In this document: piece by piece, positions 44,874 through 58,049 of the stretch
How positions within the stretch are numbered: the first letter of the stretch is position 1
How the letters are laid out: the number at the start of each line of letters is the position of its first letter
Source: Patescibacteria group bacterium
Lineage (GTDB): Bacteria; Patescibacteriota; Minisyncoccia; Minisyncoccales; Staskawiczbacteraceae
Assembly: GCA_038065715.1 (NCBI GenBank)
Contig: JBBTQL010000007.1
Location: forward strand, 49,643-113,642
Direction of reading: 5' to 3'
Length of the DNA: 64,000 bases
The notes under the pieces: model-generated
Seen by the model: only the letters and a program-made list of their open reading frames with translations
Database searches by the model: none
Told to the model about the DNA's origin: nothing
Position numbers and translations under genes: made by a program

Positions 44874-45569
44874 ATGTTAAAAGAACTTATTGACGAGTTT
44901 TACGAGGAACAGCAAAAAAATAAAGAGCAGACCAAGTTTTATATTACAGACGCCGGCAAATGCCCGCGCGCTGTTTTTTTTAAATTTAAAAATGCGCCAA
45001 GAGAGCCAATGGATGCGCGTATTTTAAGAATTTTTGAGCACGGCGAACACATACACAGAAATATTTTTAATGTTTTGTATCGCCTTAGAATTGGGGTAAC
45101 AACAGAAATTTCAATTCCATCGCAAGAAATAATTTCTGGCAGAGCCGACGCAATTTTATGCATTAACAACGAAAATTATGTGTTAGACATTAAAAGTATG
45201 AACAGCATGATTTTCAGAAATTTAAATCAGCCAAAAGAAGAAAATATTTACCAGATTCAGCTTTACTTGCATTATTTTAACATTAAAAAAGGCATTCTGC
45301 TTTACATAGACAAAGACCAGCAAAACATTAAAGAGTTTGTTGTGGACTATGATGCAGAGCTTGTAAAAAGTTTGCTTGATAAATTTTACAGCTTAAAAAC
45401 CAAAGTAGAAGAAAATATTGTTCCAGAAAGAATGCAAGATTATCCAAAAAACTGGCAATGTCAGTATTGCCAATTTAAAGACATTTGCAAAACGGCAAAC
45501 GGCCAGGAAATGAAGTGGCAGGAGTTTAAAGATAAAATTGAGTCGCAAAACACCAATCAATCATCATAA
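44874..45569 (+). CDS. Stand-alone Cas4/RecB-like PD-(D/E)XK nuclease with 4-Cys cluster
   Basis: N-terminal Cys (DAGKCPRAVFF). Motif II GRADAIL. Motif III LDIKS. QxxxY (YQIQLYLHY). C-terminal CQYCQFKDIC. Confidence 0.7.
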   Translation: MLKELIDEFYEEQQKNKEQTKFYITDAGKCPRAVFFKFKNAPREPMDARILRIFEHGEHIHRNIFNVLYRLRIGVTTEISIPSQEIISGRADAILCINNENYVLDIKSMNSMIFRNLNQPKEENIYQIQLYLHYFNIKKGILLYIDKDQQNIKEFVVDYDAELVKSLLDKFYSLKTKVEENIVPERMQDYPKNWQCQYCQFKDICKTANGQEMKWQEFKDKIESQNTNQSS

Positions 45570-45601
45570 AAATAGCGGGTGTCCGACACCCGCTATTTTT
45601 G
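45568..45601. terminator. Bidirectional terminator between convergent genes
   Basis: AAAAATAGCGGGTGT-CCG-ACACCCGCTATTTTT. Confidence 0.7.
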
Positions 45602-46735
45602 TTATTGAGTGATTTTTTCTGAAGAAAGGAGAGTGTTACCTGTCAATATATACAATTTTCCGTCAGATTGTTTAAAAAATATTTTAGGATTTTTGATTTC
45701 TAAGGAATTGCCGCTTGTTAAAGTTGCGGTTTGCGGCAGGGTAAACGTATTTATATTGCCCCTTTCGTCAATTTCTGAAATTACTATTTTATTTCCAAGG
45801 TTAAAAATTAAATAATTGTCGTTTAGCCAAAAGCTGTCGCCAATTTTTTCTGAAAATCTGTTTAAAAATATTTGGTCGGTTGGAGAATTGAGGTAAGAAA
45901 ATAGAATTTCATAATCGTTATAAAAAAGCAGTTTTTGCCCGTCCGGAGAAATTTTTAAATTATTTACCGGGCTATAAAAATTTTTAAAATCGTTTGTCGT
46001 TTTTGAAAAAAACAAAAGGCTATTATCATTTTTGAGAAAGATATTTTGCTGGACTGTTATTATTTTGTAAGTATTTTTTATATTTATACTTAGGGCAGTT
46101 TGGCTTAATTTTTGCGTATTGCCCCCGCTTTGGTCAGAGCTGTATAAAAAACCGTTGGCAGAAAGCCAAACTATATTGTTGTTTAATACTGTGCTTGCTA
46201 AAACATTTTTTAAAACGGGAATAGTTTTATCGGCTTTCGTTATATTATTATTTTCTGGCGCGTTAGAATAATACAAGTTGCCATTTTTAATAATATATTT
46301 TTCTTGTTCTTTTGGTTCAATAAAAGGGGATTGGGTTTTGTCTGTTAAAATTTCAAAAAGAATTTGTTCTTTAAATAAAACAACGTGTTCTAATTTTGCC
46401 ACTTCTTTCTCTTTTACATCCAAGGTTTTTTGGTATGAAAAATAGCCGTTTTTTTTTACCAAGACATTATGCGACTTTGGCAGAAGGTTTTGCATAAACA
46501 CAAACCCAGAAAGCATGTTTGTTTTTCCGGCAAGCTTTGAATTTATATAAATCTCGGCTGGCTCTGGCCAGACTTTAACATAAATGCCGCCTGTTGCCAC
46601 TAATTTTTTGTTTTCAAAATCAACCCTGTATCCAAGGGAATAGGCAACTATGTAGGGCGTTATGATAAAAAACAAAACAGCGCAGGTGATTAGTATTACA
46701 AAACGAGTTCTTTTCTGCATATATGTTTTAAGCAT
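45602..46735 (-). CDS. Membrane-anchored PEGA-domain protein with beta-rich C-terminal region
   Basis: N-terminal TM. VKVWPEPAEIYINSKLAGKT...HNVLVKKNGYFSYQKTLDV (PEGA-like). Confidence 0.55.
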   Translation of the reverse strand: MLKTYMQKRTRFVILITCAVLFFIITPYIVAYSLGYRVDFENKKLVATGGIYVKVWPEPAEIYINSKLAGKTNMLSGFVFMQNLLPKSHNVLVKKNGYFSYQKTLDVKEKEVAKLEHVVLFKEQILFEILTDKTQSPFIEPKEQEKYIIKNGNLYYSNAPENNNITKADKTIPVLKNVLASTVLNNNIVWLSANGFLYSSDQSGGNTQKLSQTALSINIKNTYKIITVQQNIFLKNDNSLLFFSKTTNDFKNFYSPVNNLKISPDGQKLLFYNDYEILFSYLNSPTDQIFLNRFSEKIGDSFWLNDNYLIFNLGNKIVISEIDERGNINTFTLPQTATLTSGNSLEIKNPKIFFKQSDGKLYILTGNTLLSSEKITQ

Positions 46736-46837
46736 ATATTAGCACAAAATCTTGCAATTTACCATTTATAAATCTTGATATGAATTAGTTTAAAGTGTAA
46801 AATAAATTAATATTATTAAATTCATTATTTATTAATT

Positions 46838-47221
46838 ATGTTTACAAAAATTGATAAAAAGATTTTGTTGATTTCAGCAGTTTTATTAATAATTTTTTTA
46901 ATAGTTGGATTCTTTATTTATAAAAATTTAATTGAAAGTTCAGCAACAAATGATGAAAAGGGAGATGTAATAGAAACGCAAGACCAGCAAAAAATAGAAG
47001 AAGCTCCGCAAAATTCAAACCTGCAAAATAATTCTCCAGAAATTACAATACCAGAAGGCGGCATAAAAACAGATAATGGAAACACGGGCGCGGGGTTGAG
47101 CATTTGTTCAGATAGGTGCGGAGATGGTGTTTGCCAAAAGTCCGACTCTGAGTGCAAGGTTGATAGTTTAAATTGTGTTTGCCAAGAAACTAAAGAAGAA
47201 TGCCCAAATGATTGCAAATAA
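46838..47221 (+). CDS. Small secreted/anchored Cys-rich protein
   Basis: N-terminal TM. C-terminal CSDRCGDGVCQKSDSECKVDSLNCVCQETKEECPNDCK. Terminator at 47231-47253. Confidence 0.5.
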   Translation: MFTKIDKKILLISAVLLIIFLIVGFFIYKNLIESSATNDEKGDVIETQDQQKIEEAPQNSNLQNNSPEITIPEGGIKTDNGNTGAGLSICSDRCGDGVCQKSDSECKVDSLNCVCQETKEECPNDCK

Positions 47222-47271
47222 CAAGCGCATAAAAGCCCAATTCGGGCTTTTTGTTTAAAGTTCGATAAGTA

Positions 47272-47300
47272 TTGACAAAATTATATTATGGTGATATAAT
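47272..47300 (+). promoter_or_regulatory. Consensus promoter giving a probably leaderless mRNA
   Basis: TTGACA(47272-77)-17 nt-TATAAT(47295-300). ATG at 47308. Confidence 0.5.
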
Positions 47301-47307
47301 TAATTAT

Positions 47308-48063
47308 ATGAAAGGAGGTGAACAAATTTCTATAAATAACAGCTCAAAAGTGGGAGTTTTAATGCTCCACGGTTTTTCAAGCACTCCAAGGCAGTTTAAA
47401 GAATTGAGCGCCTTTTTATCTGAAAAAGGTTTTAATATATTGGCTCCGGTTATATCGGGACACGGAACTTCGCCAGAAGATATGATGAAAACTTCGCCAG
47501 AAGACTGGAAAAAATCAACAATGGATGCTTATTTAAAATTGAAAAATAGCTCTGAAAGCATCTTTGTTATTGGAAATTCTTTTGGCTCTAATCTGGCTTT
47601 ATGGCTGGCAAAAGAATTAAATGGCAATTTAGCTGGGGTTATTACTTTAGGCGCTCCTATTTTTTTAAGATTTCATAATTTTATTAAATTCAGGCTTTTT
47701 ACATACGGCAGATTTAAAAAATATTACAAAAAACCTTTGCGCGTTTATAAAGCCGATTACACAGACATGTTAGACGAAGTTTCGTATCCTGTTATTCCTG
47801 TTAAAAACTTAAACGAGTTTATTAATTTTTTAGAGCAGGAAACAACGCCGAATTTGCATAAAATAAAAACACCAATTTTAATAGCTTACGCCACGGTTGA
47901 TCCTGTTATACATCCAAAAAGCGCAAAATATATTTTTCAAAATATAGGCTCTGAAAAAAAAGAAATTTTTTGGTTTGACAGCAACAGGCACAGCATTTTG
48001 GGAAAAGGATGCGAAAATTTATTTTGTAAAATTTTTGAATTTATAAAAGAACAAAATGTATAA
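47308..48063 (+). CDS. Alpha/beta-hydrolase carboxylesterase
   Basis: LMLHGFSSTP, nucleophile elbow GNSFGS, C-terminal D/H region. Confidence 0.8.
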   Translation: MKGGEQISINNSSKVGVLMLHGFSSTPRQFKELSAFLSEKGFNILAPVISGHGTSPEDMMKTSPEDWKKSTMDAYLKLKNSSESIFVIGNSFGSNLALWLAKELNGNLAGVITLGAPIFLRFHNFIKFRLFTYGRFKKYYKKPLRVYKADYTDMLDEVSYPVIPVKNLNEFINFLEQETTPNLHKIKTPILIAYATVDPVIHPKSAKYIFQNIGSEKKEIFWFDSNRHSILGKGCENLFCKIFEFIKEQNV

Positions 48064-49819
48064 GGCAATTCCAGAAGTTTTTTTTGAAGTTGCGAAAAAA
48101 CATCCCAATAAACGCGCCCTTTTATACAAAAAGGAAGGAGTTTATTTTCCTATTACTTACAAAGAATTATCTAAAAAAATATCAATATTTAGCAAGGGGC
48201 TTTCAGATATTGGGGTTGGCAAGGGAGACAAGGTGGCAATTTTATCAGAGAACAGGCCAGAGTGGGTTATTTCAGATTTATCAATTATGGCCATTGGAGC
48301 TGTTGCTGTGCCTCTGCACACAACATTTAATCCAAAAGCTGTTTGCAGTGTTTTAAGGCATTGCCAAGCAAAAGTTCTTATTGTTTCAAATAGCGATCTT
48401 TTAAATAAAGCGTTATTGGGTCAAAAATATTTAAAAGACCTTAAAAAAATTATTTTCATAGAAAATTTAACTTCGGCCCAAAAAGAGATATTAAGCAACA
48501 AGGTTTTAAGCTGGAAAGCAATGATGGCTCAAAATCAAAAACTTTCCGCCCAAGGCGGACCAGCCTCGGGCTGGGAAAAAATATTTTTAGACCCAGACGA
48601 TTGCTGCTCAATTATTTACACTTCGGGCACCACAGGCAAGCCAAAAGGCGTGGTTTTAACCCATAGAAATTTTTTAAGCAATGTAGAGGCGGTTGCCGAA
48701 GTTGTTCCTGTAAATAGCAGCGATATTTTTTTGTCTTTTTTGCCTTTGTCGCATGTTTTAGAAAGAATGGCAGGTTACTATATGCCTTTGTGCCACGGGG
48801 CAACTATTGCATACGCAGAAGGCATAAAACAGCTTTCAGCCAATTTAAAAGAGGTGAAGCCTACAGTAATGATTTCTGTTCCGCGCGTCTTTGAAAAGTT
48901 CCACGATGCTATTTGGGACAAAGTTAATAGCTCGTCTAAGCTTCAAAAAAGAATTTTTAAATGGGCGCTAAAACAGAAAAAGGGGACGGTGGCATATAAA
49001 GTTGCAGATTTTTTAGCTTTCAAAAAAATACGCAATAAAATGGGAGGCAGGTTGCGCTTAACAATTTCCGGGGGAGCATCTTTAAATGAAAATATTGGCA
49101 GATTTTTTTCAAAAATTGGAATTTTAATATTAGAAGGTTATGGGTTAACAGAAACTTCGCCGGTTATTTCTGCAAATCAGGAATATGATTTTAAATTTGG
49201 AACTGTTGGTAAAATTATTCCCGGAGTAAAAGTTAAAATTACTGATACAAAAGAAATTTTAACAAAAGGCCCAAATGTTTTTCAGCAATATTTCAAAAAT
49301 AAAGAAGAAACAAAACTAAGTTTTGACAGAGAGGGCTGGTTTCATACGGGAGACTTGGGATTTATTGACAAGCAGGGTTTTTTAACAGTTATTGGCAGGG
49401 CAAAAGAAATGATTGTCACTTCTGGCGGCAAAAATGTGTGGCCAGAGCGCGTTGAAAATTTATTAAATAACGACCGTTTTATTTCTCAGGCAATAATAAT
49501 TGGAAACAATAGAAAATTTATTTCAGCTTTAATTGTTCCTGATTGGCAGGAAATTGAAATATATCTAAAAGAAAATAATCTGCCTTTGCAGGAGCACGAC
49601 AAGCTTATAAAAAGCCCTGTTCTTTTAGATGTTTTTCAAAAAAGAATAGACGAAAAAATAAATCCGAATATTCACGAATTTGAAAGAGTCAAAAAATTTA
49701 AATTGCTTCCGCAGGAATTTTCTCAAGACCAAGACGAGCTAACAGCCACTTTAAAACTGAGAAGGCGCATAATTGAAAATCACCATAAAAAGCAAATAGA
49801 CTCAATGTACGAAGACTAA
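48056..49819 (+). CDS. Long-chain fatty-acid--CoA ligase (AMP-forming)
   Basis: AMP-binding motif YTSGTTGKPKGV, GYGLTETS, TGDLG. In-frame double GC hairpin at 48545-48574. Confidence 0.9.
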   Translation: MYKAIPEVFFEVAKKHPNKRALLYKKEGVYFPITYKELSKKISIFSKGLSDIGVGKGDKVAILSENRPEWVISDLSIMAIGAVAVPLHTTFNPKAVCSVLRHCQAKVLIVSNSDLLNKALLGQKYLKDLKKIIFIENLTSAQKEILSNKVLSWKAMMAQNQKLSAQGGPASGWEKIFLDPDDCCSIIYTSGTTGKPKGVVLTHRNFLSNVEAVAEVVPVNSSDIFLSFLPLSHVLERMAGYYMPLCHGATIAYAEGIKQLSANLKEVKPTVMISVPRVFEKFHDAIWDKVNSSSKLQKRIFKWALKQKKGTVAYKVADFLAFKKIRNKMGGRLRLTISGGASLNENIGRFFSKIGILILEGYGLTETSPVISANQEYDFKFGTVGKIIPGVKVKITDTKEILTKGPNVFQQYFKNKEETKLSFDREGWFHTGDLGFIDKQGFLTVIGRAKEMIVTSGGKNVWPERVENLLNNDRFISQAIIIGNNRKFISALIVPDWQEIEIYLKENNLPLQEHDKLIKSPVLLDVFQKRIDEKINPNIHEFERVKKFKLLPQEFSQDQDELTATLKLRRRIIENHHKKQIDSMYED

Positions 49820-49910: not shown

Positions 49911-52900
49911 ATGAAAAATAAAAAAAATCAATTTTTCAAGGCTAAACTTTTTAGCCGATTCCTAACAAAATCAGCGAATAATTTTTTATTTAAGCCAACT
50001 ATAATAATGTTGGTTTTTTTGTTTGTTTTTCAGCCAATGGCGTCCGTGTTTGCGCAGGAAGCGCAGGAGGTAAACGTTATTGTTCCTGAAAGCCCTGTAA
50101 TAGGCGAGATAGGACAAATTCCCGCAATAAGCAATGTTGAGCCAACCCAGACTATTAGCCCTATAACAGAATTAAGTCCTAGTGAAATTCCTCTTGTTCT
50201 ATCGCCAGAGCCTCAAGCCCCAACTATAGAGAGCGTTCCTATCGATTCGCCATTAGAGCAAAATACAGAACAAAATGTTGCAGAAAAAGAGCCTGTAGCT
50301 GCTCAAGCATTAAATCAGAACGAAGAAAACAAACAGCCAAGTTCCAGTTTGCAATTAACTCAAAAATTGCCTGAAATAGATAAAAACACAGGCGCTTTAA
50401 CATATAATTATTCTATTGCTGTTCCGCCCGGCAGAAACGGTTTTCAGCCAGAAATTGGGTTGTCATATAACAGCAATTCAAATGAACAAAACAGCATTGC
50501 AGGATATGGCTGGACTATAAATATTCCATATATCAAGCGGTTAAATAAAGCGGGTTCTGACAAACTTTATACTTCAGGAGCCGCCAGTTATTTTTATTCT
50601 TCGCTTGACGGCGAGCTGACATCAGCTGGCGGAGTTTTATATGTTCCCAAAATAGAAAACGGCAATTTTAATAAATACACTTTTGAAAATAATCAATGGA
50701 TTGTTGTTTTTAAAAACGGCACACAATATAAATTTGGGTATAATGATAATTCAAAGCAAAACGACCCAGCCAATCCAGACAACGTTTATAAATGGATGCT
50801 GCAAGAAATAAGGGACACAAACGATAATTTTATTTCTTATGAGTATTTTAAAGACAGGGGGCAGATTTATCCTTTGTCAATAAAATATACTGGCAACGGC
50901 TCAACAGACGGCATTTTTGAGGCTGATTTTCAGAGAATTGACAGGACAGACAATTTTGCCAATTATTCAACTGGTTTTAGCGTAAAGTCTAATTATTTAA
51001 TAGGTGAAATTACAGCAAACATAAATAATGACTGGACAAATAAATATGTTTTGAATTACGAAAAAAGCCAAGACGCAAACAAATCTTTATTAAAATCAAT
51101 AACAACATCAGGCAAAAATAGTAGCGGAAATATTGTTTCTTTAGCGCCATCAAACTTTAGTTATCAAAATTCAACTGCTGGTTTCACGCCCTCAAACACT
51201 TCGTGGAATATTCCATCGCCCCCAGAAGGCGATTGGAATTTACTCACAAGATCTCCTCAATTTGCCGACCTTAACGGAGACGGTCTGCAAGACTTAGTAA
51301 TAGTTGCCCATATTCCAATTGTAATAGGAACTTATCACGGCTCTCGCCTACAAGATTATCAATATTTAAATACAGGCTCAGGCTGGCTGCAAACAACAGC
51401 ATGGAACTTTCCAGGTGTGCCAGACGGCGAATCTTTATGGCAATGGCCAACTATTCCGCCGATGTTCACCGACCTTAACGGAGATGGCTTAACAGACCTT
51501 GTTTTGGTTGCCAGCCACTATAATTATGGAAATATTTATAAAGACTATCAATATCTCAACACCGGAAACGGCTGGGCGCCAAATTTCACATGGCAGCTTC
51601 CAACTCTGCCAGAAGGAGAATGGAATTTTATTTCAATGCCTCCGCAATTTGTGGATCTCAACGGAGATGGCCTGCCAGACATTTCAGCTTTAACAAGAGT
51701 TACTTTTTATGAGGATAACCGTTCTTGGAGGGAAGACAGAAATTATCAATACCTCAACACCGGAAGCGGCTGGGCGCTGGTCTCCGCCTGGAAACTTCCA
51801 ACCCTGCCAGATGGCGAATCTATGTGGCAGTGGCCTACCATACCTCCGCAGTTTACAGACCTCAACGGAGACGGTTTAACAGACCTTGTTTTAGTTGCCA
51901 GCCACTATAATTACGGACATATTTATAAAGACTATGAATATCTCAACACAGGCTCTGGTTGGACGCCAAACTCCACATGGCAACTGCCAGAGGTGGGCTG
52001 GGATTTTATTTTAATGCCCCCGCGGTTTGTGGATCTTAATTCTGACAACCTGCCAGACATTGCAATAATAGTTCGCAGGTGTGTGGAAATTGATAACAGA
52101 ACTTCTTGCGAGTATAAAGACTATCAATATCTTAATAATGGTTCTGGCTGGACACAGATTCAAACGTGGAAATTTCCAGATGTGCCAGTCGGCGAAGATA
52201 CATGGCAATATCCAGGCAGGCCACCGATATTTACAGACCTTAATGGAGACGGTTTACCCGACCTTGTTTTAATTGCCAGGCACTATAATTATGGAAATTA
52301 CCCAAAAGACTATGAATATCTTAACGGCGGGTTAAAACAGGATTTGTTAAGCCAGATAAATTATCCGCAGGGCGGCAATACAAAAGTTGATTATAAGCCC
52401 TCAACTCAATATATAGACGACTCTGGGGTTTTGTTAAATAAATCACCATATCCTATATTTACTGTTTTACAAATTATAAACAGCGATGGCCAAGGCAGTG
52501 AAATAAAATTATCATATAGGTACGCGGGCTCGCATTATTACTACAACAACCCTTTTGACAGGGAATTTGCAGGATACGATTTGGTTGAGCAAACAGATTC
52601 TATGGGAAACACAGCCAAAACTTATTTTCATACAGCTAACGACAGCAATTCATCTGCCGGAGAATTTGAAGACAATTATTTTAAAATTGGCAAGCCGTAT
52701 AGAATAGAGCAGTATGACAACAATAATAAACTTTATCAAACAACAATAAATAAATGGGGAAGCGCTAATTTAGGAAGCAATGCCGGTTTTGTAAAACTGC
52801 TTCAAACAATAGAACAAAATTTTGACCCTGACTTAACTCATAAAGACAAGGCAGAAAGCTATGAATATGACAACAATAATGGGAATCAAACTCAAAAAAT

Positions 52901-55900
52901 AGAATGGGGCGAAGTTTTGGCAAATGATGACGGTAGTTTTTTAGATATTGGAAATGACAAGCGTATTGCTAATATTAGTTATGCTGTTGGCGGAATTTCC
53001 AATTTCCAATTTTCAATTTCCAATCAATTTATCAATGACCAAAACGGAACTAAAATTAAAGAAGCCAAATATTACTACGACGGCCTGCCGCTTGGCCAGT
53101 TAACCTTGGGAAATCAAACTAAACAGGAAAATTGGATAAAAAACACAGATTACGCCAGCTCTGAAAATTCATATAATAATTTTGGCCTGCTCACACAAAC
53201 AAAAGATGCAAATAACAATGCCACAAATTTTTCATACGAAGCAAATAATATTTATCCAGCCTCTGTTATAAATGCCAAAAATCAAACAACGCAATATGTT
53301 TATAATTACGCTATTGGTAAACCAGCTCAAATAACCAATGCCAACGGAAATATATTTAAAAACACTTATGACGGTTTTGGCAGAATTTTAAAAACAGAAC
53401 AGCCAGACCAAAATAACCCTTCAACATTAGTTGTAAAAACATCTTATGTTTACAACGACAGTCCCTTGGCTGTGAGCGTTCAGCAAACAGATTATTTAGA
53501 CGGCTCAAACTCTGTAAACAACTATAATTATTATGACGGTCTTTCAAGAACTATACAGACAAAAAAATCTGCTGAAAATAGCAACTTTGAAACAAAAGAT
53601 TATATTTATGATAATAGGGGAAATTTACAAAAAGAATCTTTGCCTTATTTCTCTCAAGGTTCGGCAAAAACAAGCTCAACTTCAGAAGCTAATCTTTTTG
53701 CAAACTATGTTTATGACGCTTTAAATAGAAAAACAAGTGTTATAAATGTAGTTGGAGCAACAAGCTATAACTATAAAAATTGGCAGGCAATAATTACAGA
53801 TGTTAATGGAAACAAAAAAGACTATATTTATGACGCTTACGGCAATTTAACGCAGGTTTTAGAGCATAATGGGCAAGACACTTATATAACTGCTTATACT
53901 TATGACGGAGCAGGGAATTTAATTTTAATTACAGATGCTTTGGGAAATGTCCGCAATTTTGTTTATGACGGTTTAGGCAGAAGATTATCTGCCCAAGATT
54001 TGCATAATCCTGCAGATTCGGTTTTTGGAACTTTTACTTATTCTTATGATAATGCAGGAAATCTAATTAGTTTAACCGACCCTAAAAACCAGACAATAAA
54101 TTATGCTTACGACGCTTTAAACAGAAAAATAACTGAAAATTATACAGGAAAAACTGGCATAGAAGTTATATTAAACTATGATTATTGTTTAAACGGCAAA
54201 GGTTTATTGTGCGACAGCGTTTCAACAAGTCAAACAGAGCAATATGAATATTCAGCCTTGGGAAATGTAATAAAGCAAACAAAAATTATTGGAGATAATA
54301 TTTTAACAACCCAATTTAATTATGACAGGCAAGGAAGTCAAATTTTTATTGCAAACCCAGACAGCTCGCAAGTTAAATATGATTTTAATTCAGCCGGCTT
54401 AATTGAAAAAGTGTGGCGAAAAGAATCTGGCGACGCAGCATTTACTGTTGTAGCCAGCAACCTTGATTATTCGCCAACAGAACAAATTGCCAGTATTTCT
54501 TTAGCAAACGGAGCTCAAACAACAAACACTTATGACGCAAACCAGCTTTACCGCTTAACCCGTAAATTATCTTATGCAAACAACGTTAATTTGCAGGATA
54601 TTTTTTACCAGTATGACAGCGTGGGCAATATAAAACAAACAACTGACAATTCAAATACAGCCGCCAAAAAAATAGTTTATTATAATTATGATAATTTATA
54701 CAGATTAATTTCGGCTGTGGCCAGCAATACGTCAGACAATCAAGATTATACTCAAAATTTTACTTATGACGCTTTAGGCAATATATTATCTCAAAAATTA
54801 AACGAAAAAACTCTTTCTTATAACTACGAAGGCAATTTAGATTTATCTTACGCAAACCCAGATGCGGCAACAAAAATTGTTGAAAGCGGAATTAAGCCAG
54901 TATTAATTATTTCAAATTTTGTTTCTTCGCCAGCAACAATTAAACCGGGGGAGCAAGCAGTTTTGTCGTGGGCTGTTTCAAACGGAACTCCAACAAGTTT
55001 AACCATAGATAACGGAATCGGCTCGGTTTTGGGCTTGAATTTTAAAATAGTAAATCCAACCGCAACAACAACTTACACAATAACAGCTGAAAACAGCAAC
55101 GGAACAACCACAAAATCAATTACTATAACAGTTGCCCAACAACAGGCCGCAATTTTCACAAAAACTTTGGGCAATATAATTGACTCAGCAATTCCTGCTG
55201 CCCCAGTTATTTCAACCTTTAAAGCCTCGCTAACCACTATAACTCAGGGAGGCTCAAGCTCTTTATCATGGACTTTGTCTGGCGGAGCTCCAGCAAGTTT
55301 AATAATAGATAACGGAGTAGGCAATGTTTTAGGAAAAACAAAAATTACTGTAAAGCCATTATTCACCACAACATACACAATAACCGCAACAAACAGCGCA
55401 GGCGAGGCAACTAAATCTGTAACAATAACTGTGAAGCCTCATTCTTTGGCTCCGGTAATTTCAAGTTTTACCGCAAACCCGACCTCTATTGAAAAAGGAA
55501 AATATGCAACCTTGTCGTGGAAGATTACAGGCTCAATTAAACCCACAAGTTTAACCATAAACAATGGCGTGGGTTCGGTTTTAAATACCACTTCAAAAAG
55601 AATTACACCTAATGCAACAGCCAGCTATACGCTTACCGCAACAAACAGATATGGCGCGGCGTTTAAAACCGTAAAAATAACTGTAAATGATGTACCGCCG
55701 CCTCCGCCTCCTCCTCCTCCGCCTCCACCGCCAGCAGAAGAAGCCCCAGTTATTAATTCTTTCACAGCTGACAATACAACAATTATTCAAGGACAATCTG
55801 CAATATTATCATGGACTTTGTCTGGCGGAACTGCTACAACCCTAAGTATAAACAACGGAGTTGGCAGTGTTTTAGGAAAAACAAGCGTTATTGTAAATCC

Positions 55901-58049: not shown

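Follow-up and report, generated by a model that had tools for sequence, protein, structure and literature searches.

An array of predicted immunoglobulin-like domains inserted within the RHS shell of a putative cocoon toxin from a Patescibacteria bacterium

Within a 64,000-nucleotide (nt) stretch of DNA from a Patescibacteria group bacterium of the Staskawiczbacteraceae (GenBank assembly GCA_038065715.1, contig JBBTQL010000007.1, forward-strand positions 49,643 to 113,642; hereafter the window, whose own numbering is used throughout), one open reading frame (ORF) at 49911-58049 on the plus strand encodes a 2712-amino-acid (aa) protein, Q, which is predicted to be a Sec-signal-bearing, fused TcB/TcC-like RHS polymorphic toxin. 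We report that the predicted RHS/YD shell of Q is interrupted by a 626-aa segment (aa 1659-2284; 54885-56762, plus strand), of about 65 kDa, that reads Ig-Ig-Ig, Pro13, Ig-Ig, Big_2, Ig (Ig, immunoglobulin-like domain), which would give seven beta-sandwich domains within the wall of a single cocoon. Relatives carry quite different domains in the same loop or in a few others near it, and one part of the insert of Q appears to have been exchanged recently between related genes. We consider it probable that the insert serves to attach the toxin capsule to a ligand at a surface, and below we set out the evidence for the insertion itself before weighing this reading against its alternatives.

Results

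A whole-protein search with Q returned 654 homologues, and the best 120 of these were analysed (P-numbers denote homologous proteins, and L-numbers homologous genome or metagenome loci); their named sources were mostly Parcubacteria-type lineages, the best named homologues coming from Nealsonbacteria, Staskawiczbacteria, Falkowbacteria and similar groups. The commonest length class among the 120 was 1900-2100 aa (48 proteins), and from 44 compact members, of 1900-2110 aa, we built a profile lacking any insert. With this profile hmmsearch split Q at a single column, profile positions 6-1597 corresponding to Q 19-1658 and positions 1597-1949 to Q 2285-2624. The junctions could not be read from the high-scoring segment pairs of whole-protein BLAST, owing to the repetitiveness of the RHS region, and BLAST with the flanks was used instead; in about half of the 120 homologues the counterparts of Q 1656 and Q 2287 lie only about 3 residues apart. 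A placement of the gap at column 1685 by hmmalign, which laid the first Ig repeat on shell columns, was dropped in favour of the hmmsearch and flank-BLAST boundaries, which agree with each other. The two peptides that flank the insert, LSYNYEGNLDLSYANPDAATKIVESG (aa 1635-1660, nt 54813-54890) and NNYQYDKNGNVTGDG (aa 2286-2300, nt 56766-56810), are both present, with 625 aa between them. Judged by these alignments, aa 1659-2284 are a clean insertion at one profile column, about 115 residues ahead of the Rhs core, and the initial annotation of this DNA, which had put about 620 aa between the flanking YD repeats at 54891-56740, was only a few codons away from the boundaries given by the profile.

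That annotation had also taken the repeats on either side of the insert to belong to one shell, and this was borne out. We rejected the alternative of two separate RHS modules, as the flanks are contiguous both in the 44 compact homologues and in solved single cocoons. When the insert is removed, Q aligns to RhsP (8h8a; query 169-465 to residues 866-1151) without a break over the junction, which falls at a short loop before VRYKYDQQGN, and the flanks likewise align continuously to residues 1832-2146 of the teneurin-like proteins 9pt5/9ifo; the family profile runs in one unbroken stretch through TccC3, TccC2 and YenC2. An AlphaFold2 model of aa 1300-2495 (1196 residues) had a mean predicted local distance difference test score (pLDDT) of 81, with the RHS parts mostly above 85, and shows arrays of beta-hairpins in the shell and short strands bordering the insert at aa 1655-1660 and aa 2282-2287. 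Foldseek pairs this model with Rhs cocoons (E about 1e-23); against the TccC2 and YenC2/RHS2 chains, 555-650 columns were aligned with template modelling (TM) scores of 0.45-0.48 relative to the target. The shell upstream of the insert, its end set by the insert-less profile, occupies aa 910-1658 (52638-54884, plus strand), its modelled part (aa 1300-1658) being composed of hairpins mostly with pLDDT above 85; the downstream shell together with the Rhs-associated core occupies aa 2285-2491 (56763-57383, plus strand).

The insert, whose parts all read on the plus strand, begins with Ig-like repeat R1 (aa 1663-1746; 54897-55148), recognised by the repeat profile, and a non-repeat linker, AIFTKTLGNIIDSAIP (aa 1747-1762; 55149-55196), for which the model gives a pLDDT below 50 over aa 1744-1761. 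R2 (aa 1763-1846; 55197-55448), delimited by repeat comparison, and R3 (about aa 1847-1928; 55449-55694), which has a one-residue indel (GSIKP) in common with repeat 2 of P0002, lead to the 13-proline tract (aa 1929-1941; 55695-55733), again with a pLDDT below 50. Beyond it stand R4 (about aa 1944-2026; 55740-55988), also placed by repeat comparison, R5 (about aa 2027-2108; 55989-56234), a Big_2 domain (aa 2111-2184; 56241-56462; PF02368, 31.6 bits against a cut-off of 22.8) and R6 (aa 2197-2280; 56499-56750). The six repeats, the Big_2 domain and the proline tract are thus all where the initial annotation had placed them. The closest orthologue of the gene, about 74% identical, is the syntenic locus L001 in a metagenome-assembled genome (MAG) labelled Candidatus Saccharibacteria; it shares all six units, in unchanged order, and conserves the linker after R1, lacks the Big_2 domain, and has shorter proline-rich linkers (PPPPLPALP at the position of the 13-proline tract, and PPPPPPQPP).

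The repeats had been suspected of being Ig-like, and modelling agrees. An AlphaFold2 model of R5, made with an alignment of 30 repeat units, had a pLDDT of 96.9 and seven strands (residues 4-11, 15-17, 22-30, 35-38, 50-53, 59-67 and 70-81), and its Foldseek matches in the PDB were exclusively of the Ig superfamily, including I-set domains of titin and obscurin, Robo1 Ig5, an archaeal S-layer PKD domain and the Deinococcus HPI S-layer (probability 1.00, and TM 0.68-0.75, to titin, obscurin, Robo1 Ig5 and the archaeal PKD domain). In the large model all six units are folded, with pLDDT of about 85-90; the linker at aa 1744-1761, the proline tract and the Big_2 region are of low confidence, the last with a pLDDT of about 34. 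On these models the repeats are Ig-like folds, that is, seven-stranded beta-sandwiches. No single repeat unit reached a Pfam gathering score: I-set, PKD, Big_1 and He_PIG matched below threshold, I-set in 21 of the 30 units (best E 0.0012) and PKD in 13, and although I-set summed across the whole of Q gave 29.4 bits against a cut-off of 23.7, no one stretch passes. The unit is therefore an Ig-like family that has yet to be curated. A search of a 5.8-billion-protein set with the repeat profile gave matches that were all short fragments of less than 150 aa, from many phyla, and which are uninformative on architecture.

At the DNA level the array is repetitive but well diverged. The units, each of about 84 aa, share 45-68% identity in protein, and a DNA repeat search of the insert found 5-6 in-register copies, with 60-72% identity between whole units across 204 nt. 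Exact direct repeats reach at most 24 nt, in two pairs, as against 9-15 nt in shuffled sequence. Near-identical 81-nt stretches had been reported between pairs of units; the repetition is real, but the quoted pairs were 1 nt out of register and, once put in register, are 79-80% identical. The insert had also been described as richer in G+C than the rest of the gene, which holds against the RHS part (0.431 versus 0.336) but not against the FG-GAP and Rhs-core portions, which match or exceed it. The excess, which falls at codon position 2 (0.575 versus 0.34; third positions, 0.323 versus 0.273), is due to a composition rich in Thr, Ser, Ala and Pro, and a foreign origin of the insert was rejected, given this codon-position bias and the equally G+C-rich parts elsewhere in the gene. 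A 170-aa ORF on the minus strand (56159-56671), wholly inside the Ig/Big_2 region, was treated as spurious because it is fully contained in a conserved plus-strand gene; it is most likely a by-product of a C-rich coding strand poor in stop codons.

Q is one member of what its homologues indicate to be a family of toxins of about 2000-3900 aa, mostly from Patescibacteria and widespread among them, and insertion in the shell is common in this family. Counted as breaks between profile domains, internal inserts of 50 aa or longer are present in 68 of 121 sequences, and 22 have two. The inserts cluster at a few positions within the C-terminal third of the shell: column about 1496 (30 inserts, 156-1823 aa), about 1597, the site used by Q (10 inserts, 111-670 aa), about 1613 (12 inserts, 157-705 aa), about 1630 (10 inserts, 138-327 aa) and about 1686 (13 inserts, 84-651 aa), with a minor site at column about 1260 (4 inserts, 225-745 aa). 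All six columns lie in or beside an inter-strand turn predicted in the AlphaFold2 secondary structure of Q.

What is inserted varies from one relative to the next. The Ig unit of Q recurs at column 1597 in P0001 (8 copies), L006 and L007 (6 each), P0009 (5), P0004, which is the same as L005, and L004 (each with 4 copies and a Big_2 domain), P0002 (3), and P0005 and P0007 (1 each), and single copies also stand at column about 1496 in three proteins. Elsewhere the cassettes, which are of kinds that bind or anchor, are LamG_3 with DUF2341 (one copy or two), a TGFb-propeptide-like jelly-roll together with Ig_Rha78A_N, or Big_7 with SLH, the last being found in P0069 at column 1519, which neighbours the site of Q. 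Some Ig arrays of other members hold further modules within them, namely three CHB_HEX_C_1 modules in L008 (three matched stretches) and a CBM96-like jelly-roll in L006, and several extracted inserts start or end with Gly/Ser-rich stretches.

The commonest cassette that we observed is a recurrent module of about 215-240 aa with weak TGFb_propeptide and CBM96 matches (P0033, P0107, P0077, P0119, P0056 and aa 2190-2410 of L006), which is found at several shell sites and at times twice per insert; it conserves ...FDTSSLPD...DNDGxDF...GTSxDPxLxVTY and belongs to no curated family. We also noted that a single 621-kb contig, JGI1356J14229_10000004, has two apparently identical family members of 2853 aa, L006 (340418-355774) and L007 (134688-150044), each with its six Ig units and a jelly-roll of about 215 aa at column 1597.

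The age of the array can be gauged by comparing individual units. For five of the six (R1, R2, R3, R5 and R6) the best match is the positional counterpart in another protein and not a sister unit: R1 is closest to the first repeats of P0004 and P0001 (67%), R2 and R3 to the first and second repeats of P0002, with which R3 shares its indel, R5 to the third repeat of P0004 (71%) and R6 to its fourth and last (73%; 66% to the last repeat of P0001). R4 is nearest to its sister R5 (65%), slightly ahead of the third repeat of P0004 (63%). Between Q and L001, R1-R3 are 81-83% identical (R1, 83%), the shell 65-72% and the propeller 46%. By these comparisons the repeats are old, diverged positional orthologues, and the array appears to be under purifying selection, because R1-R3 are more conserved than either the shell or the propeller. 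Scans of genomes and metagenomes found no near-identical alleles, and no locus whose overall identity exceeds about 80%.

One tract departs from this pattern of slow divergence. Over 376 nt (56199-56574, plus strand), comprising the linker between R5 and Big_2, the whole of Big_2 and roughly the first 25 codons of R6, Q aligns without gaps to positions 904-1279 of L004, a contig from a Hainich groundwater metagenome, with 10 differences in 376 positions. Such 97% identity, in a gene that is otherwise 72% identical over the flanks, indicates that a domain cassette was recently recombined or transferred between related genes.

The rest of Q conforms to a known class of toxin. Pfam and NCBIfam give the order signal peptide, SpvB, FG-GAP, TcdB_toxin_midN, RHS/YD, Big_2, Rhs core and Abhydrolase_8-like region, with PF03534, PF13517/PF01839 and PF12256 all exceeding their Pfam cut-offs, so that, as in TcB, an SpvB N-terminal domain, a beta-propeller and a TcdB middle region precede the RHS shell, in which multiple YD/RHS repeats were found (PF05593, E 4.5e-30, plus TIGR01643). 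The N-terminus reads as a Sec signal, with a basic n-region, a hydrophobic IIMLVFLFVF and then ...SVFA/QE. The Rhs-associated core (TIGR03696; aa 2402-2491, 64.2 bits against a cut-off of 32.5) ends in NPIIGSDPTGL at aa 2491, DPTGL being aa 2487-2491, which conforms to PxxxxDPxGL. The FG-GAP propeller (aa 440-800; 51228-52310) is the part of the gene most divergent from L001, and also the most G+C-rich (0.444). In Tc toxins the beta-propeller is the gate that docks TcA.

Likeness to the BC cocoons of Tc toxins (TcdB2-TccC3, YenB-YenC2; 4o9x, 4igl) extends to the whole succession of SpvB, beta-propeller, TcdB-mid, RHS shell, Rhs core and toxin; the family profile matched TcdB2-TccC3 with an E of 5.7e-72, and TcdB1 and YenB over profile positions 334-828. 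In contrast to these, Q has B and C in one polypeptide, and its Ig-like modules lie in the cocoon itself and not in TcA. No other ORF of more than 900 aa, that is, no TcA-sized partner, was found within the 64-kb window, and because of this Q is not to be filed as a component of a three-component ABC toxin. In structures of TcA, Ig-like receptor-binding domains are likewise inserted in what is a shell protein. From its domain content, Q is a single-chain, TcB-TcC-like, predicted secreted cocoon toxin of the TcdB/TcaC-type architecture of Zhang et al. (2012), the defining traits of which, in the passages of that survey on this class, are SpvB, an integrin-like propeller, RHS, a variable toxin and a signal peptide (PMC3482391).

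The predicted toxin domain at the C-terminus (aa 2492-2712; 57384-58046, plus strand) is alpha/beta-hydrolase-like (Abhydrolase_8, E 3.1e-5 and 24.1 bits against 20.5 when the domain was scanned alone), and a CHSHGC motif occupies the position of the lipase-type GxSxG nucleophile elbow. In P0005, P0027, P0062, P0118 and P0018, BLAST alignments to Q continue through this domain. A gene of 263 aa with an N-terminal transmembrane segment (58053-58844, plus strand), starting 4 nt past the toxin stop codon and matching no Pfam family, is by its position a candidate immunity gene. It is followed by an orphan Rhs C-terminal cassette (59124-60050, plus strand), of a kind typical for the TcdB/TcaC-type class, which starts with a duplicated core fragment (MMTDSAGAIAETMDYFPFGEIR... 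NPITLSDPSGE), at 94% DNA identity to 57036-57136 of the main gene across 101 nt, and continues into a different toxin domain for which no Pfam match was found. Three small predicted membrane ORFs come next (60056-61596), two of which end ...FFNLLTNCPGIK and are probably immunity genes.

Upstream of the toxin, gene order is conserved between 44874-49819 of the window and 894-5878 of L001, with genes for a PD-(D/E)XK/Cas4-like nuclease, a PEGA-domain protein (minus strand), an alpha/beta hydrolase and an AMP-binding enzyme; this suggests that the toxin stands at a stable chromosomal position and not on an obvious mobile island. The genes of the window lie nearly all on one strand, with a G+C content of about 35%, and include one for EF-Tu (Pfam), the small plus-strand ORFs after which, at about 17.5-29.5 kb, are taken to be a ribosomal-protein operon; in these respects, and in its named homologues, the window resembles the genome of a member of the Patescibacteria (CPR). 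No tRNAs or Rfam families were found across the window.

Discussion

Our finding that a multi-domain Ig-like array interrupts a single predicted RHS shell raises the question of what such an appendage does. We think it probable that it attaches the capsule to a surface ligand, either on a target or host envelope or a glycan. This is the best reading because relatives place lectin- or carbohydrate-binding module (CBM)-like domains, or wall-binding ones, in the same loops, and because no TcA-sized gene lies nearby. The module is inserted in one predicted beta-hairpin turn of the shell, with both its ends held at that hairpin, and would project from the outer face of the capsule either as a flexible loop or as a folded-back, two-stranded arm, in which three units might run out and four run back on either side of the Pro13 spacer. 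The initial annotation had imagined a protruding stalk; with both ends pinned at one hairpin, a closed loop or a fold-back arm is to be expected and not a free rod. From generic per-domain lengths we estimate that the contour length of the array could be of the order of 30 nm. Across the family, a few loops in the C-terminal third of the shell would then accept interchangeable binding cassettes, which may pass between related genes by homologous recombination, and the capsule itself would supply the recognition that the receptor-binding domains of TcA give to classical Tc toxins.

The lumen of the Tc cocoon encloses only unfolded toxin, and a module as large as this insert could not share it with a toxin of 221 aa. 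We infer that the insert lies outside the capsule from its 626-aa size, from the small lumen of such cocoons, from its flexible, low-pLDDT linkers and from the precedent of the mosquito protein SGS1, in which accessory domains inserted in the Rhs/YD repeats decorate the exterior of the shell as putative receptor domains (PMC9935623, in its passages on these domains).

The arrangement had at first seemed to be without parallel among characterised Tc or Rhs proteins; SGS1 and the survey of Zhang et al. (2012) show otherwise. As described in passages of PMC9935623, the Rhs/YD cocoon of SGS1 bears a CBM, a carbohydrate-recognition domain of lectin type, a wedge and a second propeller, all encoded inside the repeat sequence; its Rhs core region is detectably homologous to Q, and Q too has accessory domains inserted within the Rhs/YD repeats of a single shell. 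The two differ in that the SGS1 domains are single, compact and elsewhere in the shell, whereas Q has a tandem array of seven domains and a poly-proline tract in one loop, and in that SGS1 is eukaryotic and encloses transmembrane helices where Q has an enzyme toxin; those same passages describe neither a clustering of insertion sites nor an exchange of cassettes. Zhang et al. (2012) wrote of lectin-type domains ‘embedded among the RHS repeats’, which they proposed to enhance contact with the target (PMC3482391, in passages on this class). Their survey treats RHS as a filament and predates the cocoon structures, and Ig arrays and defined insertion loops go unmentioned in those passages (PMC3482391).

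Bacterial teneurin-like proteins (9ifo, 9pt5), which have a YD shell and an Rhs core homologous to those of Q, form a third point of comparison: passages of a recent preprint describe variable adhesion domains (BIG, FN3, PKD, SLH and Ig-like) placed N-terminal to an invariant superfold (bioRxiv 10.1101/2025.11.11.687626), whereas in Q adhesion-type modules interrupt the shell. Among open-access texts we found no account of tandem Ig arrays in a shell loop, of defined sites at which insertions cluster, or of such toxins in Patescibacteria. The survey of 2012 is reportedly earlier than the large-scale sampling of Patescibacteria genomes. That RHS shells may bear accessory domains is already known in principle; what is new here is the anatomy of the insert and the family-wide pattern.

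Several considerations weigh against a role in binding. The exterior position of the insert is deduced from its size, from the smallness of the cocoon lumen and from the likeness to SGS1; tandem Ig arrays are often passive spacers and not binders; and the conservation of R1-R3 beyond that of the shell argues against a receptor-binding surface in an arms race, at least in that part of the array. The SLH domains of P0069, at a nearby site, point to anchoring on the wall of the producer. The Big_2 region, at the pLDDT given above, is poorly modelled. Moreover, a capsule without TcA would need some other route by which to deliver its toxin.

The most serious rival, which we regard as a good deal less probable than surface attachment of the capsule to a ligand, is that the Ig/poly-proline array is an anchor or spacer on the producer side, holding the capsule on the envelope of the producing cell or pushing it beyond that envelope, with no recognition of a target. 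Ig-like stalks and proline-rich wall-spanning segments do just this in surface proteins of monoderm bacteria. The Big_7 and SLH wall-binding module of P0069 fits such a role, as do the proline-rich linkers of both Q and L001 and the strong conservation of R1-R3, which would be expected of a structural part; Q also bears a Sec signal, with nothing else in it recognisable as an anchor, and some accessory domains are given an anchoring role in passages of Zhang et al. (2012) (PMC3482391). However, the insert of Q has no SLH, LysM or sortase motif within it, the inserts of many relatives are lectin- or CBM-like (LamG, CHB_HEX_C) and would fit the recognition of glycans on another cell equally well, and a chain terminus would be a simpler place for an anchor.

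It is unlikely, in our view, that the array is a structural or regulatory appendage which acts, without binding a ligand, in the oligomerisation of capsules or in steric control of shell opening and toxin release. The insertion site lies only some 115 residues upstream of the autoproteolytic core, the units are conserved, and I-set-like Ig domains such as those of titin, to which Foldseek matched the repeats, are generally known to act mainly as structural modules, all of which would suit this explanation. A specific mechanical role sits ill, though, with the finding that about half of the family has no insert at column 1597, and that anything from 1 to 8 copies, or unrelated folds, can occupy the same or neighbouring loops.

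The initial annotation had supposed the repeats to be set up for copy-number variation, and a hyper-mutable contingency locus, in which slippage or unequal crossing-over would rapidly alter copy number and hence the length of the appendage, could be imagined from the 1-8 copies among homologues and from the two exact 24-nt direct repeats. We consider this very improbable: the units have diverged too far in DNA and in protein, as given above, all but R4 (nearest to its sister R5) are closest to positional orthologues in other proteins, L001 retains the same six units in the same order, and the scans of genomes and metagenomes yielded no near-identical alleles. Lastly, an artefact of assembly, a chimeric contig or a joining of two RHS modules, for which nothing was found beyond the repetitiveness of the region and the metagenome-type genome that suggested the idea, can in practice be set aside, given a reading frame unbroken across 2712 codons, flanks that adjoin one another in 44 homologues and in the single shells that have been solved, and the recurrence of this architecture in L001, a syntenic locus from an independent MAG, as well as in no fewer than nine further proteins or contigs.

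Returning to attachment of the capsule to a surface ligand, we tentatively suggest a wider, and decidedly more speculative, scenario for the family: that the cocoon toxins of Patescibacteria have dispensed with a TcA-like partner and moved targeting to the capsule, where hairpin loops in the C-terminal third would be docking sites for cassettes swapped between strains by homologous recombination, a swapping to which the 97%-identical Big_2 tract testifies. Such cassettes would be the Ig arrays with Big_2, CBM or chitobiase-type tips, the LamG/DUF2341 modules and the jelly-rolls. Were this so, each toxin would be polymorphic at both ends, with an exchangeable targeting module in the wall of the shell and an exchangeable toxin at the C-terminus, the former being analogous to the swapping of receptor-binding proteins on phage tail fibres, and it could set which hosts these episymbionts attack.

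Patescibacteria are ultra-small and mostly live on other cells, and how they recognise and attack their hosts is largely unknown. The value of what we describe lies in the anatomy of the insert, in the family-wide clustering of insertion sites and in the evidence for cassette exchange, and not in a new principle. The tolerance of these loops, their use by more than half of the members sampled and the exchangeable lectin- and Ig-like modules that they bear provide testable handles on target specificity, and the insertion loops are candidate permissive sites at which Rhs/Tc cocoons might be engineered as targeted protein-delivery capsules.

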